A DNA stretch of 11,442 bases from Brasilonema bromeliae SPC951 (GTDB lineage Bacteria > Cyanobacteriota > Cyanobacteriia > Cyanobacteriales > Nostocaceae), in contig NZ_QMEB01000168.1 of NCBI RefSeq assembly GCF_012912135.1, forward strand, positions 1 through 11,442, written 5' to 3'. Both the position numbers and the translations under genes were made by a program. The first letter of the stretch is position 1, and each line of letters begins with the position of its first letter. A model generated the notes under the pieces. That model did not search any database and was not told the origin of the DNA. It saw only the letters and a list, made by a program, of their open reading frames with translations. Below, piece after piece: positions 1 through 11,442 of this stretch.

Positions 1-168
1 TTGTTAATAATTCTAATTCTAAATTTTCAGATATTTTTTGGCATTCGTCTAAATAATCTCTTATTTGTTGTAGAGAAATTATTTCATTTCTTTCATGAGA
101 AGGAAGTTTTAAGTAATATGAAATCCGGATGTATACTTACTGTATAGCTGGGTTGCAATTATCTGCTC

Positions 169-660
169 ATGCCAAAACGAATTTCAATTGTCCAACATCA
201 TGAATTGGACGAGTTAGAAACACGCTATCGCCAATCAAAAGATTCTGTTGAACGAAGCCAGTATCAAATTGTATGGTTACTAGGAAGCGGCAAAACAACG
301 TCGGAAGTTTCTGCGGTAACAGGATATTCTTTAAGGTGGATCAGAGTAATAGCGAAACGGTACAACGAATTGGCAGAGGCGGGGATCGGAGATAGGCGTC
401 ATCGAAACGCAGGAACAGAGCCATTATTGGATGAAGTATTACAAGCACAGCTATTGCAAGCAATGGAAACACCAGTCAGCGATGGCGGAATTTGGAACGG
501 ACCGAGAGTGGCTGGGTGGATGAGTCAAGTACTTGAGCGTCGAGTTCATCCTCAAAGAGGGTGGGAGTTTCTCAAGCGTTGGGAGCATCGTTTACGTGTG
601 CCAAGACCGGAACATTACTGCTCTGACCGGATAGAACAACTTGAGTGGAAAAAAAACTGA
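169..660 (+). CDS. IS630-family transposase, OrfA (N-terminal DNA-binding part)
   Basis: This is an ORF-track frame. It has an HTH-like segment (SQYQIVWLLGSGKTTSEVSAVTGYSLRWIRVIAKRYN) typical of IS630 transposase N-termini. It ends at TGA 658-660, right after an A8 run (649-656). Confidence 0.85.
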   Translation: MPKRISIVQHHELDELETRYRQSKDSVERSQYQIVWLLGSGKTTSEVSAVTGYSLRWIRVIAKRYNELAEAGIGDRRHRNAGTEPLLDEVLQAQLLQAMETPVSDGGIWNGPRVAGWMSQVLERRVHPQRGWEFLKRWEHRLRVPRPEHYCSDRIEQLEWKKN

Positions 661-1262
661 ATTTGAGGGTAGGCGAATTACACCAACAATATCCAGATGC
701 GAAAATTGAGGTCTGGGCAATGGATGAGCAAATGCCTGCGGCAACGCTTCGCGAACGTGTTGGACTGAAGCCAGTTTTACGACGTATTTGGGTACCGTGG
801 TGGGAGGTACCAACAGCACAGGTGCATTGGCGCTTTCAGTGGGTTTGGGTCTATGGTTTTGTTCATCCAGAATCTGGAGAAACATATTGGTGGGTTTTGC
901 CGCGTGTCAATACTGAATTGTTTAACCAAGTTTTAGGAGATTTTGCTCGCGAGTTTGGTATTGGCGATGAGAAACACGTTCTGTTAACGGTTGACCGTGC
1001 CGGATGGCACGTCAGTCATGACGTTCAAATTCCACATGGTTTACACTTGGAGTTTTTACCACCATATTCACCTGAATTACAACCAGCAGAAAGACTGTGG
1101 ACACTTACGAATGAACCAATTGCCAATCAGTACTTTTCTTCGATTGAGGAACTTGAAGACGCGATAGTCGCTCGTTGCCAAGTTCTGCTTCAAAAGCTTT
1201 GCTTTATTAGTGGATTAACCTGCTACCACTGGTGGCCTAGAACCGCCGCATACGATAACTAA
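645..1262 (+). CDS. IS630-family transposase, OrfB (DDE catalytic part), probably expressed as an OrfAB fusion by -1 frameshift
   Basis: Catalytic signature: VWAMDEQ (D), LLTVDRAGWH (D), then about 30 residues later PPYSPELQPAERLW (E), which is the IS630/Tc1-mariner P-E-L-x-P-x-E-x-x-W motif. The frame is -1 relative to OrfA and overlaps it across the A8 run. The GTG at 645 is therefore probably not a genuine start. The fusion would be about 365 aa. Confidence 0.85.
   Translation: MEKKLNLRVGELHQQYPDAKIEVWAMDEQMPAATLRERVGLKPVLRRIWVPWWEVPTAQVHWRFQWVWVYGFVHPESGETYWWVLPRVNTELFNQVLGDFAREFGIGDEKHVLLTVDRAGWHVSHDVQIPHGLHLEFLPPYSPELQPAERLWTLTNEPIANQYFSSIEELEDAIVARCQVLLQKLCFISGLTCYHWWPRTAAYDN
649..657 (+). 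promoter_or_regulatory. Candidate programmed -1 frameshift (or transcriptional slippage) site, A AAA AAC within an A8 run
   Basis: The OrfA codons read tgg aaa aaa aac tga, and the -1 frame continues open into the DDE domain. The same aaaaaaaac motif sits at the equivalent OrfA/OrfB junction of the second, unrelated IS630-family copy (minus strand, 2010-2018). Confidence 0.55.
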
Positions 1263-1435
1263 TCACCCGGATTTCATATCACCTCGTAAGCCAGCATAAC
1301 TTGCCAACCGCCTGCATGGGGCGATCGCTCCTTGAACAAAGGCAAGCAATCTCAAAGACACCAGCAAATTGCGTCGCCTCAACGAGTAAATTGACAACCC
1401 CTCAACGGACTACTATAGACAAGTTCTCTTTTTCT

Positions 1436-2528
1436 TTATGAAGCTGCGCTAAATAAAGCTTCAAGAATGAAGTCGTAAGAGGTGAGAGAAACAATCACTT
1501 CTGGTGTAATAGTTTCTAGCGCCTCAGCTAATTTCTCACGCAGTTGAGCAAGGGTTTTACAATTCTCCGATCGTAGTTTGCTCTTGAGAAACTCCCAGAA
1601 CCTCTCAATTGGGTTCAATTCACCGAGAGTGGGGAGGTTGGAAAATCGGTATAATATTTTCTGGACAATCAAGGGTTTTAACTGTGTGAAACGAGCCTTG
1701 GTCAAATTGGATAACTGCAACGTCCTCGCCAAGTTCTGCTGACAGCAACTCTAAAAACCTCTGAAAACAATCACTATCAAGATGGGAAAACTCGTAGAAA
1801 AAACTGTATCCGCTTAAAGGTTCAACGACACGATACAAGTAAAAATTATCACGTTGCCACTGACTCAAACCGATGGGTTTGACACCGGGAGCGGTAATTA
1901 AACGTCCCGTAATAGTCTTTAGTCCCAAGCGGGTTATCTCCTCTGAACATATATCTGAGTCGCTGACCTTCTCCAAATTCTTCTTGCAAGAATTTGAGTG
2001 CTAAAGGGAGTTTTTTTTAAAGTCAGACTGGCTGTGCGGATGCTGTTTCCGGCTTTTGGGACGAGGAACTTTTAGTTTGGCACCCGGCATAATAGCGAAC
2101 AAGTTGATAAACCGTTTTGTAAGCAATCTTTAGTCCCAGTTCGTTCTAAGCGCCATTGTTGAATCTGACTGTAGCTGTGAAATCCTTGTGGTGAGGACAA
2201 TCGCTGTTTCAACCGTTCCAAGTTTTCTCCACTAACTATAGATTCTTTACCAGGCGCATGTTTCACACATAGCAACCCACTTCGTCCCTCGTCTTTATAC
2301 CTTCGTGAACCTTCGAGTTACGGTTGCTTGATCTGGTCCGAAATGTTTGGCGATACGCCTTTAGGCGTCTGCCCTTCGGGCAATCGCTTGCCGACTTGTG
2401 ACTTGACCACTTTTAAGCCAGTAGAGCATTTGTAATCGCTCTTTGCTACTTGCCGTTGTCGCATATTTAACAGCTTTTTCCAATTCTTCAAGGCTTTCTT
2501 TAATCTCGACTTGCAATCTCAAACCCAT
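1436..2528 (-). pseudogene. IS630-family transposase pseudogene (multiple frameshifts and in-frame stops)
   Basis: Minus-strand reading gives recognisable transposase pieces in several frames. These are MGLRLQVEIKESLEELEKAVKYATTASSKERLQMLYWLKSGQVTSRQAIA (ATG at 2528), VKHAPGKESIVSGENLERLKQRL (2275-2072), AKLKVPRPKSRKQHPHSQSDFKKN, ITRLGLKTITGRLITAPGVKPIG...VAVIQFDQGSFH (1976-1620) and ELNPIERFWEFLKSKL (1732-1436). The 30-nt insertion at 2355-2384 supplies an in-frame TAA. One frame change coincides with a 7-nt direct repeat, accttcg, at 2299-2305 and 2309-2315. The first catalytic D context is degenerate (CSEEITRLGL). Confidence 0.8.
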
Positions 2529-2577
2529 CACGTTTAAACCAAACGCACCCTTATTTTTAATTTAGCGCAGCTTCATA
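1437..2577 (-). mobile_element. Second IS630-family insertion sequence, different from the first, inverted and decayed, flanked by a TA duplication
   Basis: A perfect 16-nt terminal inverted repeat: tgaagctgcgctaaat at 1439-1454 matches atttagcgcagcttca at 2560-2575. TA at 1437-1438 and 2576-2577 flanks both ends. The interior carries fragments of an IS630-type transposase on the minus strand. Confidence 0.8.
2355..2384 (+). repeat. 30-nt double-hairpin mini-element inserted inside a HIP1 octamer (SDR-type small dispersed repeat), copy A
   Basis: The sequence reads gcgat|acgcctttaggcgtctgcccttcgggcaat|cgc, so the flanks reconstitute GCGATCGC. There are two 5-bp hairpins, acgcc/ggcgt and tgccc/gggca. 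A near-identical copy lies at 5142-5170. Confidence 0.7.
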
Positions 2578-2869
2578 CAGAAATGGTATTACAAGTTCTT
2601 GTTGTTGGGTGTGGGCTTGGAATGGAATTTATTCGACCATAAGTCGTTTGCTAGAAACTAATGCAAAATAAGTATAACCTCATCTTTCTAAGAGGAGGTC
2701 TTCGGACAGCAAATATGATTCATTGGTTTGATGTCAGCTGACAAACACAATTCCTGAGCTAAATTCAGCAACACCAGATTTTTCTATCTTCTATATCCTG
2801 ATGTAGATACTCTCCTCTGTTGTCGGCGTCACAATTAACAGTAACACGATGCCAGGAGAGAATTAATTC

Positions 2870-3622
2870 ATGTCGCAAGAGCAACGCATAGAAGAACAAA
2901 TGCTTTCGCATGAAGCCGAAAAGCAAGTTTCTCAACAGGTAGACAAAGTAGAAAAAGTAGACGTAGATGTACAAACCGACCTTCTGAAAATATTTCAGGG
3001 ACAGGCAGATGGAGTTTCTTTTGAAGCTCAAGGACTAGTCAAGCAAGACATCCGTGTGCAGGAAATAAAACTACAGACAGATAGCATTGACATCAATCCA
3101 TTGAGTGTTCTTTTTGGTCAAATAGAACTGAATCAACCAGTCAATACCACTGCTCGTATTGTACTTATAGAAGCAGATATTAACCACGCTTTGACTTCAA
3201 AGTTTGTTCGCAGCAAGATGCAAAACTTTGAGTTGAATGTAGATGGTGAAATTGTCGGTTTACAGCCACAGGAAATACAAATTCACCTATTAGATGGTGG
3301 CAAAATGGCATTTACGGGAAAAGTACTGCTCAAAGAAAAGGGGAATACTCGCTCAATAAGTTTCACAGCACAGGTTTGCCCACGTACTCAAGACAAACCC
3401 ATAATGCTAGAAAATTTTAACTGCACTCACGGCGGAGAAGGTATTTCACTAGAAGTCGTTGTTGCTTTAATGCAGAAGGTAAAAGAACTAGTCAACTTAC
3501 CATATTATGAATATGAGAAAACGGTGTTCCGCGTCAGAAATATGGATGTTGAAAAAGGTAATATGACACTTTTGGTAGATGCACGTCTCAAGCAAATTCC
3601 CTCATTGGATGATTTATCTTGA
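2870..3622 (+). CDS. Hypothetical protein, probably DUF2993 / LmeA-like family
   Basis: A 250-aa ORF with a ggagag Shine-Dalgarno-like motif about 20 nt upstream of the ATG. The pattern (...GQADGVSFEAQGLVKQDIRVQEIKLQTDSIDINPLSVLFGQIELNQPVNTTARIVLIEADINHAL...) resembles cyanobacterial DUF2993 proteins as I remember them. The family call has not been verified by search. Confidence 0.6.
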   Translation: MSQEQRIEEQMLSHEAEKQVSQQVDKVEKVDVDVQTDLLKIFQGQADGVSFEAQGLVKQDIRVQEIKLQTDSIDINPLSVLFGQIELNQPVNTTARIVLIEADINHALTSKFVRSKMQNFELNVDGEIVGLQPQEIQIHLLDGGKMAFTGKVLLKEKGNTRSISFTAQVCPRTQDKPIMLENFNCTHGGEGISLEVVVALMQKVKELVNLPYYEYEKTVFRVRNMDVEKGNMTLLVDARLKQIPSLDDLS

Positions 3623-3776
3623 ATCTTTAGTCATAAAAGGAATGTGAGATGCAAAAAATAGATAGTTTTTCAAAAGTAAATACGTTTGGATGGACTATAC
3701 TCACTTGACTGCTGTACATAAACTATAGCAGTCCTAAATCATTAGTGAAACTCTTTTTTCTTCTCCTCTGCGCCAC

Positions 3777-3817
3777 GCCAGGTGCTACAACGGGGGGAAC
3801 CCCCGCAACGCACTGGC
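3777..3817. repeat. GC-rich imperfect hairpin typical of cyanobacterial intergenic dispersed repeats
   Basis: In gccaggtgctacaacggggggaacccccgcaacgcactggc, the outer stem is gccaggtgc/gcactggc and the inner stem is ggggg/ccccc, with an internal loop. It is flanked by tcctctg-like direct repeats (3764-3776 and 3818-3835). Only one copy is in the window, so its dispersed-repeat status is inferred. Confidence 0.35.
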
Positions 3818-3973
3818 TCCTCTGGTTCTCTGCGGTTAATTCAATCAAAATCTTTTTCACAAATCAAATAGAATTGCTATAATTGCCCAAATAAAATTGT
3901 ACTCAAAGAGATATAGACGCATCTTAATTTCAATGATGAAATGGCATTGGTTCAACTCAAATTGTAAAGATTT

Positions 3974-5182
3974 ATGTACGAAAAGAGTAAAAAACCAAGC
4001 CAGAAAAGTTTATGGGCACTCGATTACTTAAACCTTTTTCTAGCTGATGTACGTGATGGAGTAGGACCATATCTAGCTATCTACTTGAAAGCTTCAGAAA
4101 ATTGGAATCCAGCCAATATCGGGATTGCAATGTCTGCTTCAACTATTGCAACAGTGATTGCCCAAACACCAACAGGTGCGTTAGTAGACCGATTGCGTCA
4201 AAAACGAATGTTGATTGTGGTGGCTGCTGCAATTGTGTCTATTGGTTGCATCGCAATAGCCCTGTTCCCGAGTTTTCCAATAGTTATTGGTGGTCAAATT
4301 TTAATTGGTTTAGCAGCAGCAGTGTTTCCAGGTGCAATCGCCGCTATTACCCTAGGACTAGTCGGGCATGATCATTTAGACCGTCGAATTGGTCGCAATG
4401 AGTCGTTTAATCATGCAGGTAACGTACTTGCAGCGATTTTAGCTGGTTTAGTGGGTTCTTTTATTACCAGCAAAGGCATCTTTTTTCTGGTTGCAGCTAT
4501 GGCGGTGGCTAGTGCAATCGCCGTTTTGAGAATTCGCGAAAAAGAGATTGACCACGAATTAGCGCGTGGTGCAAAAGATGAGGATGAGGACGTTTCAGAA
4601 GAACATCCACATCATCTCTCTGGGTTATCGCAGTTGTTCAGCGATCGCCGCATCCTTTTGTTCTGTCTTGCAGTGGTTCTGTTTCACTTTGCCAATGCCG
4701 CTATGTTACCACTTGTCGGTCAAAGACTCTCAGAAGGCAAAGCTGCAGGAGCTACACTTTATATGTCAGCTTGCATCATTGTTGCCCAGTTGGTGATGAT
4801 TCCTTCTGCTAACTTGGCTGGTCGTTTTGCCCATGCTGAGCGAAAACCTATCTTTTTGTTTGGCTTTGCTGTTTTGCCAATTCGTGGTATACTTTACACT
4901 CTCACCAATAATCCTTATTTTTTGGTTTCTGTACAGATTTTAGATGGAGTTGCGGGCGGGATTTTTGGCGTGCTTTCAGTACTCATGGTTGCTGATTTAA
5001 CTAAGGGCACGGGTCGGTTTAATGTCACACAAGGAGCGCTAAATACTGCTGTTGGTATAGGTGCATGTTTGAGTAATCTGCTAGCTGGGTTTGTGGTGCA
5101 AAAGGCTGGCTATAATGTTGCTTTTGTTGGGTTGGCTGCGATACGCCTTTGGCGTCTGCGCTTTGCGCAATCGCTCTCGTAG
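3974..5182 (+). CDS. MFS transporter, C-terminus frameshifted by a 29-nt insertion (probable pseudogene; the restored frame would run to 5265)
   Basis: A hydrophobic, multi-helix 402-aa ORF with MFS motif A (TGALVDRLRQKRM) after TM2 and a charged central loop (ELARGAKDEDEDVSEEHPHH). After ...VAFVGLAAI the ORF reads RLWRLRFAQSLS*. The +2 frame then continues AIALVATIIFWMFVPETKAS...* to 5265, which looks like the natural TM12 and tail. Removing 5142-5170 gives an uninterrupted 420-aa ORF. Confidence 0.85.
   Translation: MYEKSKKPSQKSLWALDYLNLFLADVRDGVGPYLAIYLKASENWNPANIGIAMSASTIATVIAQTPTGALVDRLRQKRMLIVVAAAIVSIGCIAIALFPSFPIVIGGQILIGLAAAVFPGAIAAITLGLVGHDHLDRRIGRNESFNHAGNVLAAILAGLVGSFITSKGIFFLVAAMAVASAIAVLRIREKEIDHELARGAKDEDEDVSEEHPHHLSGLSQLFSDRRILLFCLAVVLFHFANAAMLPLVGQRLSEGKAAGATLYMSACIIVAQLVMIPSANLAGRFAHAERKPIFLFGFAVLPIRGILYTLTNNPYFLVSVQILDGVAGGIFGVLSVLMVADLTKGTGRFNVTQGALNTAVGIGACLSNLLAGFVVQKAGYNVAFVGLAAIRLWRLRFAQSLS
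5142..5170 (+). repeat. 29-nt double-hairpin mini-element inserted inside a HIP1 octamer (SDR-type), copy B
   Basis: The sequence reads gcgat|acgcctttggcgtctgcgctttgcgcaat|cgc. The hairpins are acgcc/ggcgt and tgcgc/gcgca. The orientation matches copy A. The second stem differs from copy A by a compensatory C-G to G-C swap. Confidence 0.7.
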
Positions 5183-5499
5183 CAACTATCATTTTCTGGA
5201 TGTTCGTCCCAGAAACCAAAGCTTCACATAAAGCACGGGCTTTCGTTTCAAACCACTATTCATGAAAAGTCTATGAATAACGACTGATTGCAAACGCCCA
5301 AGGTGTATTACATAAGCGACTAATTGCTCACTGTCTTCCTTCTATTACAATTAGTCAGTAGCCAGTCTTCTCTTAGCCAATTTTTCAGCCTAGGTCTTAT
5401 CCTAAACCAGGATTTCTATAACTGCCGAAAGATGGAATTATTAGTAAAAATTTGTAACCTTGAAAACAAAGAGATAGATATAAGCACGAAGTTTCATCT

Positions 5500-7194
5500 A
5501 TGCAAGAGTATGATGTTGTCATTATTGGAGCAGGACATAACGGATTAGTCTGTGCTGCTTATTTGCTGAAAGCTGGCTATAGCGTCCTGCTCTTGGAAAA
5601 GCGTTCTGTTCCCGGTGGTGCAGCAACAACAGAAGAATCTTTACCACAGGAAGCGCCTGGATTTAAGTTTAACTTGTGTGCAATTGACCACGAGTTTATT
5701 CACTTAGGACCAGTCGTACAAGAATTAGAACTGGAAAAATACGGCTTAAAATATCTGGAGTGTGATCCAGTTGTTTTCTGTCCTCATCCTGATGGAAAAT
5801 ACTTCTTAGGTCATAAATCAGTAGAAAAAACTTGTGCAGGAATCGCCCGTTATAATGAACGAGATGCCAAAAAATATGCAGAATTTACAGACTATTGGCA
5901 GAGGGCAATTGGTGCAATGATTCCCATGTTTAATGCACCGCCTAAATCTGTTTTAGATATTCTTGGCAACTACGACATTGCAAAGCTGAAAGATTTATTT
6001 TCAGTCATTGGTTCTCCTAATAAGACGCTGGACTTTATTCGCAATATGCTAACCAGCGCTGAGGATATTCTTAACGAGTGGTTTGATTCAGAATTTCTGA
6101 AAGCGCCTCTAGCAAGACTTGCATCAGAACTTGGTGCGCCTCCCTCCCAAAAAACCCTTGCTATTGGTGCAATTATGATGGCAATGCGCCATAATCCAGG
6201 CATGGCTAGACCCCGTGGCGGTACTGGTGCATTGGTACAAGCCTTGGTGAACTTGGTGACAAGTAAAGGTGGCGTTATCCTGACAGACCAGCAGGTTAAG
6301 AAAGTTTTGGTTGATAATGGTCATGCTGTTGGTGTGCAGGTGGCAAATGGCGTAGAATACCGTGCTAAGCACGCGGTGATCTCAAACATTGATGCCAAGC
6401 GACTATTTTTGCAATTCATAGATAACAGCGATGTAGATGCTGCTGATCCAAACTTACGGGAAAGATTAGAACGTCGGATTGTCAACAATAACGAAACTAT
6501 CCTCAAGATAGACTTGGCTTTAAACGAACCACTGCGCTTTGAACATCACGAGCACAAGGACGAATACCTGATTGGATCTGTGTTGATAGCAGATTCTGTT
6601 ACTCATGTAGAACAGGCTCATAGTAAATGTACTTTGGGAGAAATTCCAGATTCCGACCCCTCAATGTACGTAGTTGTGCCAACAATGTTAGATCCGTCGA
6701 TGGCACCTCCTGGCAAGCATACCGCATGGATTGAGTTTTTCTCTCCGTATCAAGTTGCTGGTGCAGAAGGTACTGGTTTAAATGGTACAGGGTGGACGGA
6801 CGAATTAAAGCACAAAGTCGCAGATAAGGTGATTGATAAGTTAGCAGACTACGCACCAAATGTGAAAAATGCAATCATTGCTCGTGCTGTAGAAAGTCCA
6901 GCGGAATTAGGAGAAAGATTAGGCGCGTATAAAGGAAATTACTACCATGTTGATATGACCTTGGATCAGATGGTATTTTTCCGTCCCTTACCAGAGATAG
7001 CGAACTACAAAACCCCAATTGAAGGTTTGTTCCTTACAGGTGCGGGAACTCATCCAGGTGGTTCGATTTCAGGAATGCCAGGACGCAACTGTGCGCGAGT
7101 CTTTTTGCAGCATAAGCACCCTATAGCACAGACGCTTAAGGATGCACGGGATTCGATTAAATCAACAGTTGAATCCGTGTTTAAGATTAACTAA
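5500..7194 (+). CDS. crtO: CrtI-family (phytoene desaturase-like) FAD-dependent oxidoreductase, most likely beta-carotene ketolase CrtO
   Basis: A 564-aa ORF with an N-terminal dinucleotide-binding fold (YDVVIIGAGHNGLVCAAYLLKAGYSVLLLEKRSVPGGAATTEE). It also has the C-terminal CrtI-family motif LFLTGAGTHPGGSISGMPGRNCA. Similarity along the whole length to the cyanobacterial CrtO (Synechocystis slr0088 type) is from memory. The family call is firm; the specific ketolase call is inference. Confidence 0.75.
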   Translation: MQEYDVVIIGAGHNGLVCAAYLLKAGYSVLLLEKRSVPGGAATTEESLPQEAPGFKFNLCAIDHEFIHLGPVVQELELEKYGLKYLECDPVVFCPHPDGKYFLGHKSVEKTCAGIARYNERDAKKYAEFTDYWQRAIGAMIPMFNAPPKSVLDILGNYDIAKLKDLFSVIGSPNKTLDFIRNMLTSAEDILNEWFDSEFLKAPLARLASELGAPPSQKTLAIGAIMMAMRHNPGMARPRGGTGALVQALVNLVTSKGGVILTDQQVKKVLVDNGHAVGVQVANGVEYRAKHAVISNIDAKRLFLQFIDNSDVDAADPNLRERLERRIVNNNETILKIDLALNEPLRFEHHEHKDEYLIGSVLIADSVTHVEQAHSKCTLGEIPDSDPSMYVVVPTMLDPSMAPPGKHTAWIEFFSPYQVAGAEGTGLNGTGWTDELKHKVADKVIDKLADYAPNVKNAIIARAVESPAELGERLGAYKGNYYHVDMTLDQMVFFRPLPEIANYKTPIEGLFLTGAGTHPGGSISGMPGRNCARVFLQHKHPIAQTLKDARDSIKSTVESVFKIN

Positions 7195-7219
7195 TACGCG
7201 CGTTGCATTCATACGTATT

Positions 7220-7276
7220 ACCTCACCCTGCCCTGTCGGGCATCCCTCTCCGAATTCCGGAGAGGGAAAAATTTTA
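7220..7276. repeat. MITE-like hairpin repeat (cctcaccctgccctgtcgggcatccctctcc-N7-ggagaggg), left copy
   Basis: The segment 7221-7266 matches the reverse complement of 9397-9442: a 31-nt arm and an 8-nt arm are identical, and only the 7-nt loop differs. It contains the hairpin ccctctcc/ggagaggg, followed by aaaaatttta. It lies between the convergent 3' ends of crtO-like and ilvA and could act as a terminator-like structure, although no canonical U-tract follows it. Confidence 0.7.
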
Positions 7277-7326
7277 GGGGTTTTGCTCCTCAACTCAGCC
7301 CTACTCTTTTAAGCGTGAGCATTACC

Positions 7327-8838
7327 CTATCCTAAAAACAGCTTATATGCTGGATTCTGACTTTCATCCCAATAGCGGTAACCCAGCGTATCCAGAAATG
7401 CTTGCCATTGCTCCATCTCATGGGGAGGTACCTGCATCCCCACGACAATCCGCCCGTAGTCTGCGCCATTGTTGCGGTAGTGAAACAGGCTGATATTCCA
7501 ATCAGGACTCATGGAACTGACAAACTTCATCAATGCACCAGGACGTTCAGGAAACTCAAAACGGTAAAGCAACTCATTATTAGCAAGGTGAGAGTGTCCA
7601 CCAACCATATGCCGCAAATGCAATTTTGTTAGTTCGTCATCGGTTAAGTCAATGGTTTTGAACCCATGAGCTTCAAAGGTTTCAACCATCTTTGCTGCAT
7701 CAGCACGGTTTTGAATTTGCACCCCCACGAAAATATGTGCCTCTTTTTCACCAGCAATGCGATAACTAAACTCGGTCAGATTCCGTTTGCCAATACATTC
7801 ACAAAACTTGCGAAGACTACCCCGTTCCTCAGGAATCGCCACAGCAAAAATGGCTTCGCGGCGTTCACCCAACTCTGCTCGTTCAGCAACAAAGCGGAGG
7901 CGATCAAAGTTCATGTTAGCACCGCAAGCAACGGCAATTAACGTTTGTCCCTGGATTTGTTCTCGTTCGACGTAAGCCTTTGCACCGGCGATCGCCAATG
8001 CACCCGCTGGTTCCATAATCGAGCGCGTATCCTCAAACACGTCTTTAATCGCAGCACAAGTGTCATCTGTATCAACTAAAATGATGTCATCCACATATTC
8101 CTGACACAGATGGAAAGTTTCTTCTCCGACTTCCCGCACCGCTACCCCATCAGCAAATAAGCCTACTTGAGGTAAGCGCACCCGTCTCCCTGCTTTGAGC
8201 GATTGATGCATAGCATCAGCATCCACTGGTTCAACGCCAATAATTTTAATTTCAGGACGTAAGCGTTTTACATATGCTGCAATCCCAGAAATCAATCCAC
8301 CACCGCCAATCGCCACAAAAATAGCGTGGATAGGTTGCTGATATTGTCGCAGAATTTCCATGCCGATTGTTCCTTGTCCGGCAATCACATACGGATCATC
8401 AAAGGGATGAATAAAAGTCATACCTTTTTCTGCCTCTAGTTGACGGGCTAAGGCATAGGCATCATCGTAAGTATCCCCATGCAAAACTACCTCCCCCCCT
8501 CTGGCTCTGACTGCATCTATCTTCACCTGAGGTGTCGTTACCGGCATAACAATAATTGCTCGTGTTCCGATATGACGGGCAGCAAGAGCAACGCCCTGGG
8601 CATGGTTTCCAGCAGACGCAGCAATGACACCCTGTTCCAGCAAATCCGGCGGTAGTTGCGCCATCTTGTTATAAGCACCCCGCAGCTTGAAGGAAAAGAC
8701 TGACTGCATATCTTCCCGCTTGAGTAGGAGTTTATTATTCAGTCGTGCGGATAGATTGGGAGCATAATCCAAGGGCGTTTCCTGAGCAACATCGTACACG
8801 CGGGCAGTCAGGATTTGTACAAGGTAGTCGCAAAGCAT
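7327..8838 (-). CDS. ilvA: Biosynthetic threonine dehydratase (threonine ammonia-lyase), PLP-dependent, with C-terminal regulatory domains
   Basis: Strong colinear resemblance to E. coli IlvA. Matching segments include YLVQILTARVYDVAQETPL, the PLP lysine motif SFKLRGAYN, ASAGNHAQGVA, the glycine loop GGGGL, GLFADGVAV, EPAGALA, and the regulatory region ...ISLFHYRNNGADYGRIVVG...NPAYKLFLG*. The start is set at ATG 8838 (MLCDYLVQIL..., 503 aa). The ORF-track TTG at 9042 would add 68 residues translated from tandem repeats. Confidence 0.9.
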   Translation of the reverse strand: MLCDYLVQILTARVYDVAQETPLDYAPNLSARLNNKLLLKREDMQSVFSFKLRGAYNKMAQLPPDLLEQGVIAASAGNHAQGVALAARHIGTRAIIVMPVTTPQVKIDAVRARGGEVVLHGDTYDDAYALARQLEAEKGMTFIHPFDDPYVIAGQGTIGMEILRQYQQPIHAIFVAIGGGGLISGIAAYVKRLRPEIKIIGVEPVDADAMHQSLKAGRRVRLPQVGLFADGVAVREVGEETFHLCQEYVDDIILVDTDDTCAAIKDVFEDTRSIMEPAGALAIAGAKAYVEREQIQGQTLIAVACGANMNFDRLRFVAERAELGERREAIFAVAIPEERGSLRKFCECIGKRNLTEFSYRIAGEKEAHIFVGVQIQNRADAAKMVETFEAHGFKTIDLTDDELTKLHLRHMVGGHSHLANNELLYRFEFPERPGALMKFVSSMSPDWNISLFHYRNNGADYGRIVVGMQVPPHEMEQWQAFLDTLGYRYWDESQNPAYKLFLG

Positions 8839-8940
8839 GGGCGTCAACAGGTTGGTAAATGCCGGATGGATGATAATTTTACCGCCAAACTTGTCAGCAT
8901 GACATACAGGACTTAGGCAACGAGATCCAGCAGTTGTGGG

Positions 8941-8980
8941 AGGGTGTAGGGGGGTAAGGGGGTAAGGGTGTAGGGGTGTA
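8941..8980. repeat. Short tandem repeat, five 8-nt units (RGGGKGTA on plus, TACMCCCY on minus), STRR-like
   Basis: The five units are agggtgta ggggggta agggggta agggtgta ggggtgta, read directly at 8941-8980. Inverted-orientation units (ttacccct) follow at about 9000-9020. Confidence 0.8.
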
Positions 8981-9046
8981 ATACCAAATCCGTTTTTATA
9001 ACCCCTCGTTACCCCTGGGGATTGGAAATCGCGGCTATACAAACGA

Positions 9047-9064
9047 AGTCCGCCTGCGCGGACT
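9047..9064. other. GC-rich hairpin (agtccgc-ctgc-gcggact)
   Basis: A perfect 7-bp stem with a 4-nt loop, seen directly. It resembles dispersed hairpin repeats of Nostocales genomes, but only one copy is in the window. Confidence 0.35.
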
Positions 9065-9290
9065 AAATTATAAATGGGGTATAAGACGCGGATTTAGTAT
9101 AAGGGGAAAACGCGCGGGTGTATAGAAGTTAAAAGCTAAAAGGCAAAAGAAAAATTTCTTTGTCCTTACTTTATGGTTTCTACTTTTTAAAGGTCTAAAA
9201 AAAGAAGATTGCCATATCAGGAACTGTACTTATCCACGGTGTAGTTACTTGTGGTTTGGAAAAACTTGCACTAAGACCTTCCTATTAAAC

Positions 9291-9342
9291 AAAATCTGCT
9301 TTTTGGACGGTTCATCGTACCACGAAAAGCAGATTTTTTTTT
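9291..9342 (+). terminator. Intrinsic-terminator-like hairpin with A-tract/T-tract flanks, not attached to any annotated gene
   Basis: The stem pairs aaaatctgctttt (9291-9303) with aaaagcagatttt (9325-9337), around a loop of about 21 nt, and a run of T follows (to 9342). The symmetry makes it potentially bidirectional. No CDS ends near it on either strand. Confidence 0.4.
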
Positions 9343-9360
9343 AAAATATTCAGAATTATG

Positions 9361-9443
9361 AACCTCACCCTCGCTTGAATCGGCGCTAAAATCTTTCCCT
9401 CTCCTTAATAAGGAGAGGGATGCCCGACAGGGCAGGGTGAGGT
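9361..9443. repeat. MITE-like hairpin repeat, right copy (inverted relative to 7220-7276)
   Basis: The outer arms aacctcaccct (9361-9371) and agggtgaggtt (9432-9442) pair, and the inner hairpin is ccctctcc-ttaataa-ggagaggg (9397-9419). The segment 9397-9442 is the reverse complement of 7221-7266 except for the loop. Confidence 0.7.
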
Positions 9444-9528
9444 TCCGAACTTACTAGTAATTTTCCGAAATCTTTCAAGATAAAGTGGTAGATATAACTA
9501 AATGTCATCTTGGTTTCGGGGCTAGTTT

Positions 9529-9969
9529 ATGGAACCTGCAACACTCACAGCAGCGGCGATCGCCACCCTAGCATTTAGCAAAGCTATCGAAAAAACCGCA
9601 GAAACACTGACTGCAAGCGTATTAAATAAATTAAACAATCTGCGCGAGAAAATTTTTCATAGGTTCAAGGATACTCAGAAATTAAAGGATACGCTAGCAA
9701 AAGCCCAGAAAGAAGGCTCAAAGGCAGATGTTGATTTAATTGCTGCTTATTTGCAGGTAGCAATGGACACAGATGATAAATTTGCTCAAGATATTCAACA
9801 GCTTGCTCAGGAAATTAACCAAGAAATTAATATTGGTAATATTGAAGGGCGGAATGTTCAGAATGTTTATGGTGGCGAAGCTTTTCAGTCTAATGATGCG
9901 AATGCTCCCACTTTTCAAGGCGGCAGTGGTCACAACATAACCTTTAACTACAATAATCCCAATTCTTGA
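9529..9969 (+). CDS. N-terminal module of an NLR-like protein: hydrophobic first helix, helical domain and G/N/Q-rich tail. It ends at an in-frame TGA, so it is either a separate small protein or the 5' part of a disrupted or readthrough fusion.
   Basis: A 146-aa ORF-track frame. It reads MEPATLTAAAIATLAFSKAIEKTAETL (apolar helix), then charged helical segments, then NIGNIEGRNVQNVYGGEAFQSNDANAPTFQGGSGHNITFNYNNPNS. It is in the same reading frame (frame 1) as the NB-ARC ORF that starts immediately after the TGA. Confidence 0.7.
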   Translation: MEPATLTAAAIATLAFSKAIEKTAETLTASVLNKLNNLREKIFHRFKDTQKLKDTLAKAQKEGSKADVDLIAAYLQVAMDTDDKFAQDIQQLAQEINQEINIGNIEGRNVQNVYGGEAFQSNDANAPTFQGGSGHNITFNYNNPNS

Positions 9970-11442
9970 CTGCAGTCGTCCGAATGGGAACGGGCAAAGT
10001 TAAATCCCCCTACTGGAATACCAGAGAATTTGCCCAAGAATAGGGCGACGAAATTTGTCGGGCGAGAAGAGGAACTGCAACAGCTACACCAACTTTTGCA
10101 GGAAAATGACCGCGTGGCAATAGCCGCCATTTCTGGTATGGGTGGAGTGGGGAAAACAGAACTGGCGCTGCAATATGCAAATACTCACCGCGAAACTTAC
10201 CAAGGTGGAATTTGCTGGTTACTCCCGAAAGCTGCGGATGTGGGATTGCAGTTAGTGCAGTTTGCGCGTATTCACCTTAACTTAAACCCACCAGAAATAT
10301 CGCCGGATTTTGATTTACACGCGCAACTCGCATACTGCTGGCGGCGTTGGCGTGAGGGTGAGGTGCTGCTGATTTTAGATGATGTCGCGAAATACAAAGA
10401 AATTAAACCGTATCTCCCAACCTCATCTTCCCGGTTTAAGGTGTTGATGACAACAAGAGCGCACTTTGGGCAAATTCCGAAATTATCATTAGGTGTGCTG
10501 CAACCAGAAGCGGCGCTGGAGTTATTACGAACACTCATTGGTGCAGAACGAGTTGATGAAGAAATTGCACAAGCAGAATCTTTGTGTGCATGGCTGGGAT
10601 ATTTACCTTTGGGGTTAGAATTAGTCGGGCGGTATCTTGCACGCAAAGAAGATTTGTCTCTAGAAGAAATGTTGCGGAGGTTGGAGAAAAAGAGATTAGA
10701 ACAACCTGCCCTTGTGAAGTCAGAAGACGACATGACAGCACAACTGGGTGTGCAAGCAGCGTTTGACTTGAGTTGGCAGGAATTAAACAACACGGATAAG
10801 CAACTGGCGTGTTTGCTGAGTTTATTTGCACCTGCACCAATACCTTGGCAGTTGGTAGAACTGTGCTTACCCGATGTAGATGCAGAAGAGTTAGAGGAAA
10901 GTCGGGATGATAAGCTGCTGAATTTGCATTTGCTACAGCGTAAGGAAAAGGGAATTTATCAACTGCATCCACTGCTGAGGGAATTTTTTCAAGCGAAGTT
11001 GACAGAGTTAGATCCCCCCAACCCCCCTTATCAAGGGGGGGATCTCAAACAAGCTTTTGCCACAGCAATGATAGCTGTTGCTAAGAATATTCCTGAAAAC
11101 GCCACGCGTGAACAAGTTACCGTTATTTCTCCCGCAATACCTCATTTGGCAGAAGTCGCCAACAATCTTATTCAATGTGTCAGGGATGAGGATTTAATTT
11201 GGGCTTTCGTTGGTAATGCCTTATTCTACAATAGTCAGGGATTGTATGATCAAGCAGAACCTTGGTATAAGCAATGTCTAGAAGTTACTAAAAAACGCCT
11301 GGGAGATGAACATCCCGATGTCGCAACTAGCCTCAACAACCTGGCTAATCTCTACGACTCCCAAGGAAGATACGCAGATGCTGAACCACTGTACCTACAA
11401 GCATTGGAACTAAGGCGACGCCTGCTGGGAGATGAACATCCC
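9970..11442 (+). CDS. NB-ARC (STAND) NTPase with TPR repeats, NLR-like. Partial, because it runs off the window; the start is unresolved.
   Basis: I checked 491 consecutive sense codons by hand, from 9970 to 11442; this frame is not in the ORF track. Motifs: FVGREEELQQL; Walker A GMGGVGKT (10135-10158); Walker B VLLILDDV (10363-10386); RFKVLMTTR; GYLPLGLELVGRYL (10597-); MHD-like YQLHPLLREF (about 10957-10986). TPR units of the LGDEHPDVATSLNNLANLYDSQGRYADAEPLYLQALEL type begin at about 11200. The first in-frame ATG (10138) lies inside the P-loop. The only upstream options are TTG 10030, TTG 10096 and GTG 10114. Confidence 0.85.
   Translation, partial: MQSSEWERAKLNPPTGIPENLPKNRATKFVGREEELQQLHQLLQENDRVAIAAISGMGGVGKTELALQYANTHRETYQGGICWLLPKAADVGLQLVQFARIHLNLNPPEISPDFDLHAQLAYCWRRWREGEVLLILDDVAKYKEIKPYLPTSSSRFKVLMTTRAHFGQIPKLSLGVLQPEAALELLRTLIGAERVDEEIAQAESLCAWLGYLPLGLELVGRYLARKEDLSLEEMLRRLEKKRLEQPALVKSEDDMTAQLGVQAAFDLSWQELNNTDKQLACLLSLFAPAPIPWQLVELCLPDVDAEELEESRDDKLLNLHLLQRKEKGIYQLHPLLREFFQAKLTELDPPNPPYQGGDLKQAFATAMIAVAKNIPENATREQVTVISPAIPHLAEVANNLIQCVRDEDLIWAFVGNALFYNSQGLYDQAEPWYKQCLEVTKKRLGDEHPDVATSLNNLANLYDSQGRYADAEPLYLQALELRRRLLGDEHP
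11011..11044. repeat. Palindromic C/G-run mini-repeat embedded in frame in the NLR-like gene
   Basis: In gatccccccaaccccccttatcaagggggggatc, the outer stem is gatcccccc/ggggggatc and the inner stem is cccccc-ttatcaa-gggggg, bounded by gatc on both sides. It translates as DPPNPPYQGGD. It has the same C-run, AT-loop, G-run design as the ccctctcc-ttaataa-ggagaggg repeats at 7243-7266 and 9397-9419. Confidence 0.6.

Follow-up and report, generated by a model that had tools for sequence, protein, structure and literature searches.

A conserved UGA-C and a covarying pseudoknot point to probable stop-codon read-through between a Bell-like small protein and an NLR-like NTPase in filamentous cyanobacteria

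The right-hand end of an 11,442-nucleotide stretch of DNA from the cyanobacterium Brasilonema bromeliae SPC951 (contig NZ_QMEB01000168.1, positions 1-11,442; hereafter the window) raises the question of why the long reading frame of an NLR-like protein is interrupted by a single stop codon. Translation gives 638 codons in frame 1 from 9529 to 11442, with a TGA at 9967-9969 as the sole stop, exactly as an earlier sequence-only reading of this DNA had noted. That reading treated the TGA as a blemish to be swapped for a sense codon, a view that does not survive comparison with related loci: the TGA is followed by C in 63 out of 63 TGA loci, with an in-frame NTPase and a covarying pseudoknot behind it. 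We consider it likely that the frame represents a single recoded gene in a Bell/NLR-type system of cell death or immunity, which would yield two products through read-through of the UGA. On balance, we also favor the broader proposal that a large bacterial NLR-like family uses programmed, pseudoknot-stimulated UGA read-through as a portable cassette, so that one open reading frame (ORF) would supply both a free effector and an effector-bearing sensor in a fixed stoichiometry.

The part ahead of the TGA encodes a protein of 146 amino acids, for which a search of 5.8 billion proteins returned 179 homologues, nearly all of them 139-155 amino acids long and hosted by Nostocales and other filamentous cyanobacteria. 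The nearest homologue, from Brasilonema sp. CT11, is 94% identical, and an exhaustive hidden Markov model (HMM) search (E<=1e-3) placed 706 clusters at 50% identity in the family. These 146 amino acids thus constitute a widespread stand-alone family that ends at the TGA. Together with the conserved UGA-C, the in-frame NTPase, and the pseudoknot described below, this makes the codon neither damage nor a simple boundary between genes, and the locus something other than one ordinary ORF or a pseudogene. The protein starts with a hydrophobic N-terminal helix and has an acidic residue at position 2-3; M1, E2, and P3 are invariant in alignment A2, and P3 is invariant in alignment A1 as well. Bell domains are membrane-targeting modules of the HeLo/Hell/MLKL kind, for which an acidic residue at position 2-3 has been described (Dyrka et al. 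2020, bioRxiv 10.1101/2020.01.06.895854), and an N-terminal signature of the 'MEPIS' type has been reported for Bell, Hell, and Bab domains and for antiphage NLRs (Ibarlosa et al. 2024, bioRxiv 10.1101/2024.11.07.622273). Within the tail, residues N109, V110, Q111, N112, V113, Y114, G115, and G116 are invariant in A2, and the family consensus reads NVQNVYGG...APxFQGGSGHxITFN. A low-confidence AlphaFold2 (AF2) model of the small protein (mean predicted local distance difference test score, pLDDT, of 67; predicted template modeling score, pTM, of 0.56) places helices at residues 8-108 and a disordered tail after them, with a pLDDT below 50 across most of residues 105-141. Searches of the small protein against Pfam, NCBIfam, and PADLOC gave no match, nor was any family member significant against any Pfam model; a PDB profile search was likewise without a match, and Foldseek of the AF2 model against the PDB gave nothing at E<=0.001. 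The JGI product names attached to several family members (P0004, P0008, P0010-P0012, and P0014), such as 'MinD-like ATPase', 'adenosyl cobinamide kinase', and 'septal ring factor EnvC', are clearly spurious.

The part behind the TGA (9970-11442) matches Pfam NB-ARC (7.4e-17, 61.9 bits against a cutoff of 23.5), TPR_10 (5.8e-25), and TPR_12 (9e-20), which bears out the domain composition proposed by the sequence-only reading, and all five motifs that it had listed, from GMGGVGKT to LHPLLREF, were located (Table 1). With both the NB-ARC motifs and a C-terminal repeat array, this part has the makeup of an NB-ARC STAND NTPase with a TPR sensor. The repeats had also been expected to run past the window end, and they do so in the closest relative, Brasilonema sp. 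CT11 (L002), which has 926 codons 3' of the TGA with 12 TPR_12 stretches. The proposed layout of effector, nucleotide-binding oligomerization domain, and repeats, along with the assignment to an NLR-like class, therefore stands on the Pfam results, but the suggested membership of the Avs group is not supported: PADLOC matched no Avs or bNACHT model at the window locus, its sole match there being the generic TPR model PDLC01169.

Using protein patterns only, we collected 69 genomic loci, of which 66, the window included, were informative. The stop codon at the junction was TGA in 63 of these 66, TAG in one, and TAA in two, the last two being two-gene loci. In all 63 TGA loci the base that follows the stop (+4) was C. 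The 3' stops of these same NLR ORFs vary among TAA, TAG, and TGA, and the LmeA gene in the window uses TGA as an ordinary stop. After the junction TGA, frame 0 ran on without a stop for 200 codons or more, or up to the contig end, in 57 out of 63 loci, with a median of 681 codons versus 10 in the other frames. The spacing from the stop to the P-loop ranged from 153 to 189 nucleotides and took only multiples of three, and a +1 insertion in one locus (L032) is made good 26 nucleotides further on. What we find at the junction is thus a conserved, putatively leaky stop followed by a conserved in-frame coding extension.

These counts bear on another explanation, in which an all-in-one NLR was inactivated by a nonsense mutation and we are looking at a pseudogene or at a fault of the assembly. 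All-in-one fusions without a stop do exist (P0319, 957 amino acids and verified at the DNA level; P0306; and L067), and a few loci are clearly decaying (L059, L007, and L057). However, the stop recurs at the same position across 63 loci, among which small-protein identity falls to ~40%, and across 55 metagenome loci besides; divergence of this extent excludes that the loci are fresh copies of a single mobile pseudogene. Their downstream ORFs are intact, with the third-position pattern of coding sequence, and 9430-11328, with its TGA, recurs at 100% identity in an independent Logan assembly (SRR35385960; L001). We find this explanation barely credible, and judging from the conservation across loci it appears effectively refuted.

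If the stop is genuine, the next question is where translation of the NTPase begins. Between the stop and FVGR, which opens the NB-ARC domain, 27 out of 57 loci contain no ATG, GTG, or TTG at all, and ATG occurs in none of the 57. In the window, homology with paralogous NB-ARC proteins starts from KLNPPTGIP, 10 codons past the stop, and so precedes the sole possible start codon (TTG at codon +21). The NTPase part thus lacks a conserved start codon and cannot generally be initiated alone, which leaves ATG 9529 as the only place for translation to start. From about codon +18 after the stop, third codon positions vary as in coding sequence. In codons +1 to +14 all three positions are constrained, which argues for selection at the RNA level: at one codon W, R, or G is swapped while the bases NGG are retained, and the codon directly after the stop is mostly CTA or CTG, with CTC, CCA, CCG, CAG, and AAG also occurring.

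The same evidence can be set against the possibility that these are two separate genes, with the small protein ending normally, the NLR being translated through termination-reinitiation or from a non-canonical start, and the RNA serving in coupling, pausing, or mRNA stability. Bell/NLR pairs normally consist of two tightly linked or overlapping genes (Dyrka et al. 2020), a form that two distant members of the family (L066 and L073) have. Moreover, gene callers do place a downstream gene here, for instance from GTG 10114, and some TTG or GTG lies ahead of FVGR in 30 out of 57 loci. Yet a start at GTG 10114 would cut off the conserved FVGRE segment and the strand ahead of the P-loop, no start codon is conserved among the loci, and a scan for promoters and terminators gave only chance-level sites. 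Independent initiation also fails to account for four observations: only UGA-C is used, no stop intervenes from the UGA to the domain, the frameshift in L032 is compensated, and the NLR lacks the N-terminal motif that its two-gene relatives carry. We consider separate genes unlikely. A junction-spanning protein query returned no natural sense-codon variant and no database protein that truly spans the junction. One seeming TGG (Trp) variant, P0222 (L131, 488-1648), was rejected, as its DNA has TGA and the gene caller had used a code with TGA as sense; entries of this kind could mislead searches for 'natural fusions'.

The RNA behind the stop was compared in an alignment of 63 distinct loci (A3). 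An H-type pseudoknot at 9978-10008 fits this alignment with 96.3% of cells paired and compensatory double changes in 7 out of 9 pairs (50 cells). None of 500 shuffles was as good, and slid controls were 23-58% paired. Stem 1 is paired in 98.4% of cells, with double changes in three out of five pairs (for example, CG 36 / UA 23 at one pair and CG 33 / UG 12 / GC 10 / UA 8 at another), and it was recovered independently by RNAalifold. Stem 2 is paired in 93.7% of cells, with double changes in all four pairs, and its arms take nine complementary forms across lineages (GGGA:UCCC, GGAG:CUCC, AGGC:GCCU, CGGA:UCCG, GCAGA:UCUGC, AGGGAC:GUCCCU, GGGGGC:GCUCCC, GGGG:CCCC, and GAGG:CCUC), the distant members L072 and L074 bringing new pairs. 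The only TAG variant (L058) retains the knot via compensatory changes, and the sole locus without stem 2 (L059) is also frameshifted downstream. A conserved and covarying RNA structure thus lies about 8 nucleotides past the stop. A different pairing, of the stop codon with AGUUA, came from the single-sequence fold and was discarded as not conserved.

A conserved in-frame UGA closely trailed by a conserved RNA structure is also what bacterial selenoprotein genes look like, and the UGA might accordingly encode selenocysteine, or be read by a dedicated opal suppressor tRNA, with the downstream structure resembling a selenocysteine insertion sequence (SECIS). However, an Rfam search of 9000-10400 matched no family at the recoding site, SECIS included, even at E<=10. 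What covaries here is a pseudoknot, its second stem included, and not a SelB-type hairpin; one member has UAG in front of the same knot, and the codon lies in a disordered interdomain linker, not in a redox site. In addition, a published survey of 61 cyanobacterial genomes found none with a UCA-anticodon tRNA, and the cyanobacteria discussed in a selenium-trait survey are not selenocysteine decoders. We regard decoding of this kind as very improbable.

The stop and knot are not confined to one type of protein. They precede NB-ARC-TPR proteins, NACHT-HEAT-NCC-H proteins, NB-ARC proteins with APAF1_C, and unknown membrane proteins. A metagenome scan with a DNA pattern, in which proteins were not used, identified the 55 additional loci mentioned above, and the upstream ORF matched the family HMM in 46 out of 53. 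The sequence TCCC, which is absent from the scan pattern, was present at the expected offset in 31 out of 49 unique metagenome sequences (chance 0.004). In one metagenome locus (L106; JAAUYH010089630.1, match 1610-1642), the upstream ORF is a 309-amino-acid alpha/beta-hydrolase of the DUF676/PGAP1 type, which stands in place of the Bell-like protein, and the cassette precedes a P-loop NTPase. Taken jointly with programmed read-through, and with the same fair degree of confidence, we propose that 'stop + pseudoknot' behaves as a portable unit joined to different effectors and STAND sensors.

Relatives with other gene arrangements indicate what such a unit could replace. The distant members L066 (Leptothoe) and L073 (Vacuolonema) are two-gene loci, in which TAA or TAG ends the small protein, and the NLR is a separate gene that starts from its own ATG and repeats the small-protein tail at its N-terminus (small protein, EVWNVIGKAEKNEFIDNKAPIIKDNTGTINISYGQPP; NLR N-terminus, EQWTVTGNAERNVYIDNKAPIIPGNQGTVNITYGQLP). 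The tail of the window small protein aligns with that of the L066 small protein. The sequence-only reading had likened the locus to NLR cell-death systems, and the tail motif carried by both effector and NLR in these two-gene relatives supports that likeness. Beyond the true fusions described above, the wider family is also fused to TIR and to a probable CHAT domain, and paralogous NB-ARC proteins have amyloid-like or EAD N-termini directly ahead of the same "GIPQNLP.SG..FVGRE" linker. From these two-gene and fusion relatives it follows that the recoded form can give a free effector plus an NLR bearing both effector and motif. The proposal would join three natural architectures in one homologous family: two genes, a fusion, and a recoded gene. 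The fusion P0319 clusters with a PNP_UDP-TIR protein, a TIR protein, and another small-protein/NB-ARC pair (L132, 1-5874), a neighborhood that suggests a defense island.

Based on these comparisons, we propose the following mechanism. Most ribosomes would stop at the UGA and release the 146-amino-acid protein, composed of the 'MEP' hydrophobic N-terminal helix, a predicted helical bundle of ~100 amino acids, and a 40-amino-acid tail rich in glycine, asparagine, and glutamine (G/N/Q). A minority would decode the UGA, probably by near-cognate tRNA-Trp, aided by the weak UGA-C context and by the pseudoknot positioned at the mRNA entry channel, which would yield a fusion of ~1070 amino acids with the same N-domain and tail followed by NB-ARC and TPR. 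By analogy with HET-S/NWD2, Bell-BASS/NLR, and Bab/Agp, triggering of the TPR sensor may oligomerize the NB-ARC domain and cluster the tails of the long form. These could then template the tails of the abundant short form, after which the helical domains might attack the membrane. Read-through would in this way replace the duplicated motif of two-gene systems and set a low sensor-to-effector ratio.

Several points weigh against this reading. Read-through is inferred from comparative sequence analysis. The pseudoknot was originally derived by eye from the very sequences on which it was scored, and its hairpin is small; folding of the single sequence does no better than folding of shuffles (z = -0.22). 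Stem 2 is just 4 base pairs long and owes its covariation to few lineages, and non-cognate combinations of stem 2 loop and arm pair in 27 out of 72 cases compared with 8 out of 9 for cognate ones. About 10% of loci have short ORFs downstream. As for the small protein, assignment of its N-domain to the Bell fold is tentative, given the empty Pfam, PDB profile, and Foldseek searches and the pLDDT of the AF2 model, and the tail is a candidate amyloid motif on the strength of its composition and predicted disorder.

Table 1. Features of the recoded locus in the window (positions are those of the whole stretch).
Feature	Position	Strand	Basis
Short product: 146-amino-acid Bell-like protein, termination product including the stop	9529-9969	+	Homologue family; called identically on the independent assembly
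N-terminal 'MEP' and hydrophobic helix (MEPATLTAAAIATLAF)	9529-9576	+	Residue conservation; Bell-type signature
C-terminal G/N/Q-rich tail (NIGNIEGRNVQNVYGGEAFQSNDANAPTFQGGSGHNITFNYNNPNS), candidate amyloid-type signaling motif	9829-9966	+	Family conservation; predicted disorder
Putative recoding site, UGA then C	9967-9970	+	Conservation of stop and +4 base across loci
8-nucleotide spacer (CUGCAGUC) from stop to pseudoknot	9970-9977	+	Alignment A3; length constant in the loci analyzed
Stem 1: 9978-9982 (GUCCG) with 9991-9995 (CGGGC)	9978-9995	+	Covariation; RNAalifold
Stem 2, 5' arm GGGA, inside loop 9983-9990	9986-9989	+	Alignment A3
A-rich loop 3 (AAAGUUAAA), 9996-10004; stem 2, 3' arm UCCC, 10005-10008	9996-10008	+	Covariation
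Predicted read-through extension: linker, NB-ARC (~10066-10731), start of TPR array (11197-11442)	9970-11442	+	Pfam; cut by the window end
Walker A, GMGGVGKT	10135-10158	+	Frame 0, 153-189 nucleotides 3' of the stop in 55 loci
Walker B, VLLILDDV	10363-10386	+	Motif search
RFKVLMTTR	10432-10458	+	Motif search
GYLPLGLELVG	10597-10629	+	Motif search
LHPLLREF	10963-10986	+	Motif search

The remainder of the window contains several further features. Just upstream of the small gene, nested perfect inverted repeats at 9360-9445 look like a small repetitive or miniature inverted-repeat transposable element (MITE)-like element, with outer 12-nucleotide arms (GAACCTCACCCT / AGGGTGAGGTTC) and inner 12-nucleotide arms (TCCCTCTCCTTA / TAAGGAGAGGGA) that form a near-palindrome 1 nucleotide apart; the region has a weak match on the minus strand to Rfam 'whalefall-1'. 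A hairpin with 17-nucleotide arms at 9287-9349, in the intergenic region between ilvA and the NLR locus, comes after an A-rich stretch and before a T run, and resembles a bidirectional intrinsic terminator. The threonine dehydratase (ilvA) ORF itself (7327-9042, minus strand) is listed with 571 amino acids from a TTG and is probably over-extended at its 5' end, since its PALP domain begins no earlier than residue 87. A hairpin at 9042-9065 (GTCCGC-CTGC-GCGGAC), located at the 5' end of this listed ORF, scores 31.9 bits against Rfam CRISPR-DR28 (gathering score 35); a CRISPR array was ruled out, as the hairpin is present in a single copy. At the other end of the window, an IS630-like transposase at 169-1262 falls into an HTH_33/HTH_29 ORF (169-660) and a DDE_3 ORF (645-1262) that overlap, either because it is frameshifted or because it uses a programmed frameshift. 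The following ~1.6 kb (1263-2869) holds only short ORFs, and those on the minus strand at 1436-1732 and 1620-1976 have no Pfam match.

If the proposal is correct, the more than 100 loci with a covarying pseudoknot would provide a tractable model of bacterial read-through, and the annotation of hundreds of cyanobacterial NLR-like genes would change. Current records split such a locus into a "hypothetical" 146-amino-acid protein and an NB-ARC protein that is truncated at its N-terminus and given an arbitrary start, and screens that match motifs in two annotated proteins would miss such loci, a major class. The proposal would also explain, in a form open to testing, how cell-death signaling based on amyloid or oligomerization sets its effector-to-sensor ratios. 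To our knowledge, stop read-through stimulated by a dedicated RNA is not established for bacterial chromosomal genes, barring selenocysteine insertion and a few phage cases, and we know of pseudoknot-stimulated programmed UGA read-through only from viruses. Our literature search yielded no prior account of read-through in the context of cyanobacterial NB-ARC proteins, Bell domains, bacterial NLRs, or Npun_R4603/4604. NLR/Bell/BASS systems and pseudoknot-stimulated read-through are thus each known; the literature searched contained no case of the two combined in bacterial chromosomal genes and as a portable cassette.

Among known systems, the RNA signal is closest to that of retroviral gag-pol, where read-through of the murine leukemia virus (MuLV) type depends on a stop codon, a spacer of ~8 nucleotides, and an H-type pseudoknot. 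The window shares with it a putatively leaky stop, the 8-nucleotide spacer, a compact H-type pseudoknot, and the proposed output of an abundant short product and a rare extended fusion in a fixed ratio. It differs in that the gene is bacterial and chromosomal, has UGA-C instead of UAG-G and a much smaller knot (5 + 4 base pairs), and encodes an immune-like sensor and effector, not a polymerase. Selenoprotein genes resemble the window in their conserved in-frame UGA with an RNA structure directly downstream, whereas the window family has a pseudoknot geometry, a UAG variant, and a linker position for the codon, and a cyanobacterial tRNA-Sec has not been reported. At the protein level, Avs and bNACHT systems have the same three-part organization of N-terminal effector, STAND NTPase, and repeat sensor, but the window matches none of their PADLOC models. 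A further parallel comes from Bab/Agp, through which E. coli controls abortive infection by means of amyloid (Ibarlosa et al. 2024, bioRxiv 10.1101/2024.11.07.622273), and from fungal HET-S/NWD2: here an effector that combines an 'MEP...' hydrophobic helix 1 with a helical bundle is activated by a repeat sensor through a shared short amyloid motif. Unlike the window, these systems comprise two genes with a duplicated motif, and the PDB profile and Foldseek searches gave no sequence or fold match of the window protein to Bab or HeLo structures. Also close to the window are the Bell-domain/BASS amyloid-signaling gene pairs of filamentous bacteria, which adjoin NLRs of the NB-ARC or NACHT type (Dyrka et al. 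2020, bioRxiv 10.1101/2020.01.06.895854). Common to both are a small protein of ~140 amino acids that begins with a hydrophobic helix, carries an acidic residue at position 2, and ends in a short G/N/Q-rich motif, and a collinear NB-ARC-TPR or NACHT protein in multicellular cyanobacteria; L066 and L073 are genuine pairs of this kind, both partners carrying the motif in the defining BASS layout. In contrast, the window NLR has neither its own start nor a copy of the motif at its N-terminus and instead continues the effector frame past the UGA and pseudoknot, so that the shared motif of a BASS pair would be acquired here only through the read-through fusion.

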